A DNA stretch of 64,000 nt, from assembly GCA_965262715.1 (NCBI GenBank), contig OZ253553.1, positions 1,056,001 to 1,120,000 of the forward strand, read 5' to 3'. Source of the stretch: Bdellovibrionales bacterium (GTDB lineage: Bacteria > Bdellovibrionota > Bdellovibrionia > Bdellovibrionales > JAUICD01). Below, one piece after another: positions 47,535-48,589 of this stretch. The position numbers and the translations under genes were made by a program. The notes beneath the pieces were generated by a model that saw only the letters and a program-made list of their open reading frames with translations, was not told where the DNA came from and made no database searches. Numbering within the stretch: the stretch's first letter is position 1; each line of letters begins with the position of its first letter.

Positions 47535-47611
47535 GGTTCGGTAGCTCAATTGGATAGAGCACCTGCCTTCTAAGCAGGGGGTTCCAGGTTCAAGTCCTGG
47601 TCGAACCGCCA
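47535..47611 (+). tRNA. tRNA-Arg (UCU)
   Basis: Acceptor GGTTCGG/TCGAACC, anticodon arm CCTGC-CTTCTAA-GCAGG, T-loop GTTCAAGTC, encoded CCA. Confidence 0.95.
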
Positions 47612-47772
47612 TCTTCTTGTTTCCCTAACATGTTATAAAAAAACGAAAAGATCCTCCTTACTAAAATGCATCAGGCTTTCTAGGCTTTGCCCTATTTGCC
47701 AAACGGCGTAAGCCAGTTTGGGGGCAATGCCAGAAAGTCACCAGAGGTGAGATGCATTTTAGTGAAATAAGC

Positions 47773-47838
47773 CAATTGGATAGAGCACCTGCCTTCTAAG
47801 CAGGGGGCTTGCAGGTTCAAGTCCTGGTCGAACCGCCA
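47773..47838 (+). pseudogene. 5'-truncated tRNA-Arg copy
   Basis: Lacks the acceptor 5' strand and most of the D-stem 5' strand; variant GGCTTGCAGG. Confidence 0.85.
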
Positions 47839-47999
47839 TCTTCTTGTTTCCCTAACATGTTATAAAAAAACGAAAAGATCCTCCTTACTAAAATGCATCA
47901 GGCTTTCTAGGCTTTGCCCTATTTGCCAAACGGCGTAAGCCAGTTTGGGGGCAATGCCAGAAAGTCACCAGAGGTGAGATGCATTTTAGTGAAATAAGC

Positions 48000-48064
48000 C
48001 AATTGGATAGAGCATCTGCCTTCTAAGCAGGAGGTTCCAGGTTCAAGTCCTGGTCGAACCGCCA
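48000..48064 (+). pseudogene. 5'-truncated tRNA-Arg copy
   Basis: Same truncation point as the previous copy; two substitutions relative to the intact gene. Confidence 0.85.
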
Positions 48065-48231
48065 TCTATGAGAAAAAAATTTCCCTAACATGTTATAAAA
48101 AAACGAAAAGATCCTCCTTACTCAAAATAAACAGATTTTCTAGGCAATGACCTATTTGCTGAGGGCATTAGCCGTCAGGGTCAGTGCCAGAAAACAGCCA
48201 GAGGCTGGTTTATTTTGAGTGAAATACAATC

Positions 48232-48264
48232 GGCTTGCAGGTTCAAGTCCTGGTCGAACCGCCA
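48232..48264 (+). pseudogene. T-arm/3'-end fragment of tRNA-Arg
   Basis: GGCTTGCAGGTTCAAGTCCTGGTCGAACCGCCA. Confidence 0.8.
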
Positions 48265-48589
48265 TCTATGTTAGAAAAAAATTTCCCTAACATGTTATAA
48301 AAAAACGAGAGGTATCTCCTTACTCAAAATAAACGGATTTTCTAGGTAATGACCTAATTGCTGACGGTAAAAGCCGTCAGGGTCATTACCAGAAAGTGGC
48401 CAGAGGCCATCTCAAAAGTCTTAAATTGTTATAAATAACTGTGCTACAAGAGACTTCGGTAACACTTTCTTCAAGGCAAGAGAAGATATAATTCTATTTT
48501 TGGCTTCCAGAAAGCAGGCAAACTAACAATTCCCAAAAACTTCTTTGCCGGAATCCCTGACTGCTAAAATCCTGGGTAAATAAAAATAA

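Follow-up and report, generated by a model that had tools for sequence, protein, structure and literature searches.

A polar structured repeat enriched at tRNA ends and stop codons forms a probably flank-duplicating array behind tRNA-Arg in a Bdellovibrionales genome

Why is an intact tRNA gene followed by several partial copies of its own 3′ end, interleaved with copies of a structured element? We encountered this arrangement in a 64,000-nucleotide stretch (the window) of a Bdellovibrionales genome of 2.94 Mb (G000), behind tRNA-Arg(TCT) (identified by tRNA search at 47535..47611 on the + strand, as are all parts of the array below). The gene upstream of the array is lepA, encoding EF4 (45671..47473, + strand); in G001, a 90% complete sister genome from the same genus, lepA does not adjoin tRNA-Arg(TCT). 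A first-pass annotation had described four units of ∼160 bp, each a leader plus a hairpin, as a tiny element integrating repeatedly and directionally at this tRNA. The four units are present, with the leader TTTCCCTAACAT starting at 47620, 47847, 48080, and 48282, but the unit proper measures ∼148 bp and forms a three-way junction instead of one hairpin, and the last unit lacks the 3′ arm. Unit U1 (47620..47767) consists of the 5′ motif TTTCCYTAACAT, a leader of ∼30 nt, a three-way junction (an outer stem, a long hairpin, and a small hairpin with an AGA loop), and the 3′ end TTTTAGTGAAA. U2 (47847..47994) has the same sequence (148/148 positions, or 162/162 counting flanks), U3 (48080..48224) shares its first 43 nt with U1 and has other stem modules, common to dispersed copies, and the 3′-truncated U4 (48282..48409) continues into GCCATCTCAAAA (48406-48417), which has 62 exact copies genome-wide. 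The distal units indeed differ from U1/U2 and from one another by 15 to 28% (identities of 74% for U1/U3, 72% for U1/U4, and 85% for U3/U4).

The three tRNA-Arg pieces all end in CCA, and the first two both begin at tRNA nucleotide 13, as described earlier. Piece 1 (47773..47838) has one inserted base and the substitution C49G (GGCTTGCAGG); piece 2 (48000..48064) is gene-like at that position but carries two other substitutions, C27T and one G to A; and piece 3 (48232..48264), 33 nt from the T arm to CCA, shares GGCTTGCAGG with piece 1. One simple tandem duplication is insufficient to explain the array, which agrees with the earlier view. The first 25 nt of the leader occur genome-wide only in the four units of this array and the stem modules recur at dispersed sites, pointing to local duplication plus module exchange. 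The duplicated tRNA ends carry alleles of related genomes, T27 being the tRNA-Arg allele of G002, G003, and G004 and G49 that of G004, a match with which other origins are also compatible. At tRNA-Arg(TCT) of G004 (L016/L081, 2001-2240), there are ∼75-nt tandem duplications of a degenerate 3′ end without the G000 unit. The array units fold far more stably on the + strand than expected (z-scores of −6.3 to −6.9, with 0/200 shuffles equally stable), and an Rfam search over 47400-48700 returned nothing above the gathering score except the tRNA. No integrase or reverse transcriptase (RT) was recognized among the open reading frames (ORFs) between 38 and 58 kb of the window, as the first reading had also stated; the only mobile-type gene recognized there encodes an Rpn-family PD-(D/E)XK nuclease (42685-43683) and has no unit beside it.

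As far as tested, the array is not an assembly artifact. A contig in each of two runs from two studies (X1 and X2, one of which may be the source sample) covers U1 and the U1-tRNA junction with zero differences, and its depth is about twice that of the flanks (6.96 versus 2.9 to 4.0 in X1 and 37.9 versus 16.9 to 19.6 in X2). Contigs of X1 also cover the junction between piece 3 and U4, and no single contig of the runs spans the entire array. Given that the U1-tRNA junction is reproduced without differences at ∼2× flank depth, at least the U1/U2 duplication is real. In a ∼90% relative (run X6), the site seems to have a single U1-like unit and, after it, 112 other letters and the downstream gene, as suggested by three contigs whose depths are similar; in G001, no unit stands behind tRNA-Arg(TCT). 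Since the X6 relative seems to hold one U1-like unit, the proposal that the unit nearest the tRNA is the newest is unsupported. This relative also has 1,444 extra letters between lepA and the tRNA (window 47473-47483).

The array units belong to a large dispersed family. A profile built from the four units, iterated and run on G000, yielded 463 matches, of which 308 are near full length, in 229 clusters that make up 2.2% of the genome, and 0 matches on the reversed genome; 3 of the 229 clusters lie inside a long ORF. The unit ends are sharp, with TTTCCYTAACAT on the 5′ side and TTTTAGKGA plus a looser AACAG on the 3′ side, and TTTCCYTAACAT resembles the reverse complement of the unit 3′ end at ∼10/12 positions, in part owing to the outer stem. 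When 22 copies are aligned, they share the three-way junction, with compensatory changes in 29 of 42 consensus pairs. Because G-T pairs outnumber A-C pairs 27 to 5, the fold is selected on one strand; the loops, a mixture of GNRA and GNYA, are compatible with either RNA or DNA. Stacked and 5′-truncated copies are common (another 3′ end follows 35/320 3′ ends), and there is no replichore bias (110 versus 98). The earlier description of the unit as a small nonautonomous mobile element with a conserved fold is thereby upheld. Many G001 units (e.g., L014, 1640-2480) are preceded by GAACTT, located 16 nt from a TCAAA-like word within the unit (by eye), a pair that we take to resemble an ECF-σ promoter consensus.

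With a covariance model, the unit was found in 3 of 61 related genomes, namely, G000, G001, which is denser in units than G000, and three small contigs of G004. Since these contigs (C1, C4, and C11; L115, L118, L125, and L126) are 82 to 94% identical and syntenic to G000, they are probably misbinned from a congener, referred to as Y here. G004 proper has no copy of the G000 unit family, including in 121 kb around 27 of its tRNAs, and a match in another phylum (L192) was discarded as a chance similarity within a coding gene. Judging from the matches among these 61 genomes, the repeat family is genus restricted.

To place the tRNA array in context, we compared 35 same-strand arrays with spacers of 20 to 340 nt. 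The duplicated DNA is that upstream of the first unit in 12 arrays, that downstream of the last unit in 2, both in 5, and neither in 16, and several of the duplicated pieces include protein-gene 3′ ends. The rpsQ-rplN array (genes named by eye) has the same layout: copies of the rpsQ end are interleaved with four units, of which, as behind the tRNA, two are identical and two are different; at the same site, Y (a ∼89% relative) has units with other stem modules. Given that the layout of upstream DNA plus unit recurs in 12/35 arrays, including at ribosomal-protein gene ends, the tRNA pieces are likely best read as flank duplications. Taken as an array, it is ordinary, one among a dozen places where copies of this dispersed repeat have piled up locally. 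Repeated directional att-type integration at this tRNA, as first proposed, is not supported, given the 463 matches genome-wide, the same layout at protein-gene 3′ ends, the lack of a unit behind tRNA-Arg(TCT) in G001, and a link to tRNAs that runs through the 3′ end of the element. The spacers between units cluster at 81 to 98 nt in 15 of the 35 arrays, giving periods near 230 nt. At G000:C1:858165-861000, each of seven 431-bp repeats contains a unit and a tRNA-Ser(GCT) of which only the 5′ half, as far as a cut at the anticodon loop, is present; another hairpin element is joined to it at that point in antisense. Outside the window, at G000:C1:2198524-2198955, four tandem near-identical pseudo-copies of tRNA-Trp, with an altered anticodon loop, no CCA, and a period of 88 to 89 nt, precede the intact gene with no unit involved.

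The manner of insertion is strongly asymmetric. Neither filled and empty repeated targets nor orthologous sites of Y and G000 revealed a constant target duplication; at filled sites, target DNA is deleted over 1 to ∼150 nt or duplicated over 24 to 98 nt (289 nt in one array), and nontarget 5′ linkers are shared by copies at different sites. Flanking direct repeats above the control level (score of 40 or more) were found for 6/64 isolated copies and 0/64 controls. The 3′ end of the unit is fixed and its 5′ flanks are variable, with bodies that differ at the same site between close relatives. In G000, the unit 3′ end lies within 8 nt of a tRNA end at 8/34 tRNAs (expected, 0.14), five of them with the 3′ end 0 to 4 nt from CCA on the opposite strand and three with it 2 to 8 nt before the tRNA 5′ end on the same strand. 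In G001, this distance is within 9 nt at 7/35 tRNAs (gaps of 3 to 9 nt, by eye), and only two tRNAs, Asp and Ser(GCT), have a close 3′ end in both genomes. The antisense gaps to CCA are 0, 1, 1, 1, and 4 nt in G000 and 4, 5, 6, and 9 nt in G001, with none of the nine at 10 to 100 nt; other junctions interrupt the tRNA itself, at the D loop, in the variable region, or within an anticodon loop. The suspected relation of the element to tRNA genes, with copies at other tRNAs, is thus genuine, but it runs through the 3′ end (15 cases); the 5′ end comes within 9 nt of a tRNA in 1 case, the tRNA-Arg(TCT) array itself.

The same polarity is seen at stop codons. In G000, an antisense stop codon is found no more than 10 nt away from 16/179 distinct 3′ flanks, compared with 0/149 5′ flanks and 4/600 random intergenic sites. 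A second measure of this distance gave 10/98 3′ versus 0/111 5′ flanks in G000 and 8/114 versus 1/95 at sister-genome loci (p = 6e-5), or 18/212 versus 1/206 when both genomes are pooled. Enrichment of 3′ ends before start codons and −35-like boxes is weaker than at stops, a TTGAC-like box adjoining 10/98 3′ versus 1/111 5′ ends in G000 and 14/114 versus 4/95 in G001, which is a weak signal. At one orthologous site, the G000 copy ends 4 nt before an ATG where Y retains the ribosome-binding region. Most 3′ flanks abut nothing recognizable, and a general rule of landing before hairpins was dismissed as weak (22/179 versus 31/600) and partly driven by tRNAs. These junctions suggest that the repeat may supplant intergenic DNA until it meets a base that cannot be lost. 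G004 proper has a different structured repeat family, whose 3′ flanks abut stops in 10/33 cases versus 1/20 for the 5′ flanks (loose motif). In this family, which is unrelated in sequence to the G000 unit, the 5′ leader is conserved, the hairpin bodies can be exchanged, and the 3′ end is fixed; its copies sit in and beside PF05635 genes (loci L023-L049, L077-L091, L109-L114, and L120).

PF05635 is also the family to which the G000 unit leads. The multicopy gene family most closely tied to the unit encodes a 99-amino-acid four-helix-bundle protein (PF05635/TIGR02436, with a match to PDB 2GSC). In the cited sections of the literature, PF05635 is described as homologous to the Avd protein of diversity-generating retroelements (DGRs) (PMC10053308) and its members as having no known function (PMC4990558, PMC3936711). 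In G000, a unit lies within 300 nt of 12/19 PF05635 genes versus 51/406 small ORFs. In G001, all 14 PF05635 loci have a same-strand unit (13 loci) or its 5′ motif (1 locus) within or just behind the gene, and 7/14 cassettes start with the unit 5′ motif. Across the five related genomes G000 to G004, there are 19, 14, 0, 0, and 19 PF05635 genes and 12.5, 44.5, 0, 1.9, and 19.1 dispersed repeat segments per 100 kb, the densities coming from samples of 86 to 162 kb (centered on tRNAs in G001 and G004) and the comparison being no statistical test. An apparent co-occurrence of unit and gene in G004 was rejected, with the unit matches lying on the three G000-like contigs only. PF05635 genes are often broken by units. 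Based on this linkage, the Avd-like protein may be a helper of unit spread; part of the linkage in G001 could be neutral pile-up, given the high unit density there. A single-sequence AlphaFold model of the protein (pLDDT of 59) was set aside.

Several further features of PF05635 genes and their surroundings were recorded. In G035 (L033), the tail of a PF05635 cassette abuts the CCA of tRNA-Glu in antisense. The genes of G035, G031, and G025 (L022, L024, L025, L030, L035, and L038) are often arranged head to head as inverted pairs with a palindromic leader between them, and their tails consist of 6- to 8-nt tandem words. In G021 (L304-L311, contigs chosen because they hold the gene), the copies seem to be 5′ truncated to various extents, whereas their 3′ tail is structured and common to all, with an end that is fixed. 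G000 contains 62 clusters of imperfect 8-nt words that form hairpins, the same words as in PF05635 flanks, 16 of them within 150 nt of a unit. In the main text of CC-licensed PMC and bioRxiv articles, our search turned up neither an account of PF05635 genes paired with repeats of this sort nor one of a landing bias at tRNA ends or stop codons.

We also looked for other possible drivers and found no matching transposase, Y1 enzyme, or RT common to the carrier genomes. The one PF01797 (Y1 transposase) gene in G000 carries IS200-like ends of its own and is not flanked by units, and G001 has no PF01797 match. Among 25 ORFs flanked by units on both sides, none looked nuclease-like by eye, and three were PF05635 genes. 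Five multicopy transposon families with readable ends had no matching termini and no enrichment near units; the transposon families of G000 were recognized as IS1634, IS30, and IS256 types, presumably. An RT as common driver was rejected, as PF00078 gave no match in G001 or G004; of the three matches in G000, one is an RT of the group II intron type and one of the retron type. Querying G001 and G004 with a group II RT (run with no positive control) found nothing. One ORF of 590 amino acids next to tRNA-Asp (L020, 1282-3054; G000:C1:2650.5-2652.3 kb) fuses a retron St85-type effector to an RT. Genes for Rpn/PD-(D/E)XK proteins number 5, 14, 0, 0, and 1 in G000 to G004, and we do not favor them as drivers, because 8/39 members of the largest family (label by eye) near a unit do not clearly exceed the background of 15%. 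Loss of mismatch repair was rejected, with MutS present in 5/5 genomes, and adenine-specific mutation showed no clear excess, A>G being raised only in the PF05635 genes of G004 (27 versus 7 T>C).

The model that we consider best, and to which we give moderate confidence, is a copy-in of a single strand that is anchored at its 3′ end and resolved by recombination. An incoming single-stranded copy would become joined to a nearby site through the fixed 3′ end. On the 5′ side, it would be resolved either by recombining with a resident copy, so that the resident leader is kept and the body is exchanged, or through an imprecise joint. A copy that lands upstream of a resident one would produce an X-unit-X-unit duplication, in which X would here be tRNA nucleotides 13-77 or 45-77; landing downstream would delete DNA until an indispensable base is reached, so that 3′ ends would pile up against tRNA ends and stop codons in a ratchet. 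At tRNA-Arg, copies arriving at a resident unit would have joined at about nucleotide 45 and at nucleotide 13 of the tRNA, each duplicating the tRNA end plus the resident leader, and ordinary unequal crossing-over afterwards would have made the identical U1 and U2. On the strength of the linkage described above, the Avd-like protein would be the likely helper in this process, acting together with host enzymes. Several observations stand against parts of the copy-in model. Flanking direct repeats above the control level are few (6/64), and most 3′ flanks adjoin nothing recognizable; the ratchet predicts intermediate CCA gaps, and their absence at 10 to 100 nt hints at direct targeting; the T27 and G49 alleles match the tRNA-Arg of related genomes, which an origin as att scars would account for and the copy-in model does not; and G004 proper has 19 PF05635 genes yet zero G000-type units, which argues against the helper step.

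The short CCA gaps, with none further away, fit priming or targeting better than a ratchet, and they speak for a retro-mobility that is primed at RNA ends, a reading that we regard as rather unlikely. Here, a polymerase loaded by the Avd-like protein would copy the unit RNA into DNA from the 3′-OH of tRNAs (CCA or anticodon-cut halves) or of trimmed mRNAs, would jump between the unit and tRNA fragments, and the product would recombine into a matching locus. The junctions in the D loop, variable region, and anticodon loop, the fixed 3′ end with 5′-truncated and 3′-stacked copies, and the G035 cassette tail antisense against the tRNA-Glu CCA are consistent with such a route, as is the homology of PF05635 to DGR Avd according to the cited part of PMC10053308. 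It is at odds with the lack of PF00078 matches in G001 and G004 and the empty group II RT query there (which had no positive control), with the group II intron and retron types among the G000 RT matches, with the lack of a clear excess of adenine-specific mutation, with loops that mix GNRA and GNYA, and with 3′ ends that also precede TTGAC-like boxes (a weak signal), which are not in RNA. A broader, transposase-free reading, in which Avd-like proteins mobilize their own genes and SINE-like structured noncoding partners by priming at RNA ends (tRNA CCA, stop-codon boundaries) or at matching DNA boundaries, is speculative and rather unlikely; if it holds, PF05635 would no longer be an orphan family without a function, and a class of puzzling bacterial repeats would be accounted for.

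It is also conceivable, but distinctly unlikely in our view, that the tRNA pieces are attR scars of islands at tRNA-Arg that units later trimmed away, or that the unit itself integrates att-wise. The pieces have boundaries typical of att blocks in tRNAs, in that they end in CCA and begin in the D arm or ahead of the T arm, and T27 and G49 both lie on the 5′ side of a stem with a host-type partner, which looks recombinant-like; G004 has tRNA-Arg 3′ duplications without the unit. However, a leader that is unique to the four units points to local duplication, the layout recurs at non-tRNA genes, GGCTTG is also present in unit-derived sequence, C27T is a simple transition, and the window between 38 and 58 kb contains no recognized integrase, which might be supplied in trans. 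We consider it very unlikely that a DDE transposase moves the unit as an ordinary MITE by way of its imperfect terminal inverted repeats, with arrays from unequal crossing-over and abutment from adjacent deletions. The ∼10/12 match between TTTCCYTAACAT and the reverse-complemented 3′ end and the richness of G000 in insertion sequences would suit it, and elements of the IS1634 type can produce long variable duplications. Against this stand the five multicopy transposon families with readable ends, whose termini do not match and which are not enriched near units, the absence of a constant target duplication, the conserved internal fold, and the strong 3′/5′ asymmetry. Least probable of all is that a Y1 (RAYT-like) HUH nuclease drives the unit as a REPIN/BIME system by acting on its fold in single-stranded form. 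The fold on one strand would agree with it, and the cited sections report REPIN tandem clusters that include flanking DNA (PMC3116915) and a TnpA-REP that cleaves at a distance and is able to amplify BIMEs (PMC3333891), but the sole PF01797 gene of G000 has IS200-like ends of its own and no flanking unit, the unit-denser G001 (90% complete) has no PF01797 match, and 0/25 doubly flanked ORFs look nuclease-like by eye.

The locus draws attention to a repeat that takes up 2% of a genome, behaves in a strongly polar way, and duplicates the ends of genes, although its carriers have no recognizable transposase in common. The sister genome shows this 3′-end bias as well, and so does a third genome rich in PF05635 genes, in a repeat family unrelated to the unit. 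A 99-amino-acid protein with a 148-nt fold would be a small two-part system bearing on the role of Avd-like genes outside DGRs. Integrases duplicate tRNA 3′ ends as att sites, and tRNA-linked repeats with periods of ∼200 bp exist in enterobacteria, e.g., at tyrT. Our array resembles them in its period and in tRNA 3′ pieces repeated behind the gene; unlike them, the unit also occurs away from tRNAs, and what gets duplicated is any DNA that happens to precede it, protein-gene ends included. This cautions against taking every tRNA 3′ duplication for an island scar. Target-primed retrotransposons, such as SINEs/LINEs and group II introns, have a fixed 3′ end, a variable 5′ end, variable target duplication or deletion, and chimeric copies. 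The unit shares all of these traits as a DNA pattern, whereas no RT is common to its carriers. It also differs from DGRs, in that the RT matches lie elsewhere than the Avd-like genes (the two typed are group II and retron), with none in G001, and in that there is no clear excess of adenine-specific mutation.

In its general behavior, the family works like REPIN/BIME repeats without the REP doublet or RAYT. As given in the cited sections, REPINs form ordered clusters of near-identical units that include flanking DNA (Bertels and Rainey 2011, PMC3116915), and like REPINs with their RAYT, the unit occurs as hundreds of nonautonomous intergenic hairpins in flank-including clusters and inserts into or next to existing copies. 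What sets it apart from that description is a ∼148-nt three-way junction with a single-stranded leader in place of a REP doublet, with no RAYT found, a polar landing of the 3′ end at tRNA ends and stop codons, and the linkage to PF05635 genes. With REP/BIME elements and TnpA-REP, as far as the cited sections go (Ton-Hoang et al., PMC3333891), it has in common mosaic units, diversification followed by local amplification, a single-strand model, and flank capture, and it differs in having no GTAG-type REP and no REPtron and in a helper candidate that is noncatalytic by family. The ORF-bearing 23S rRNA intervening sequences, in the portions of PMC4990558 and PMC10053308 cited here, encode the same protein family (PF05635-TIGR02436) and are likewise selfish, sporadic, and hairpin associated, whereas the genes described here are dispersed (19 and 14 copies) outside rRNA and DGRs and travel with a separate noncoding unit. 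New here is the landing polarity at tRNA ends and stop codons, and the reading of the tRNA pieces as flank duplications likewise comes from this analysis.
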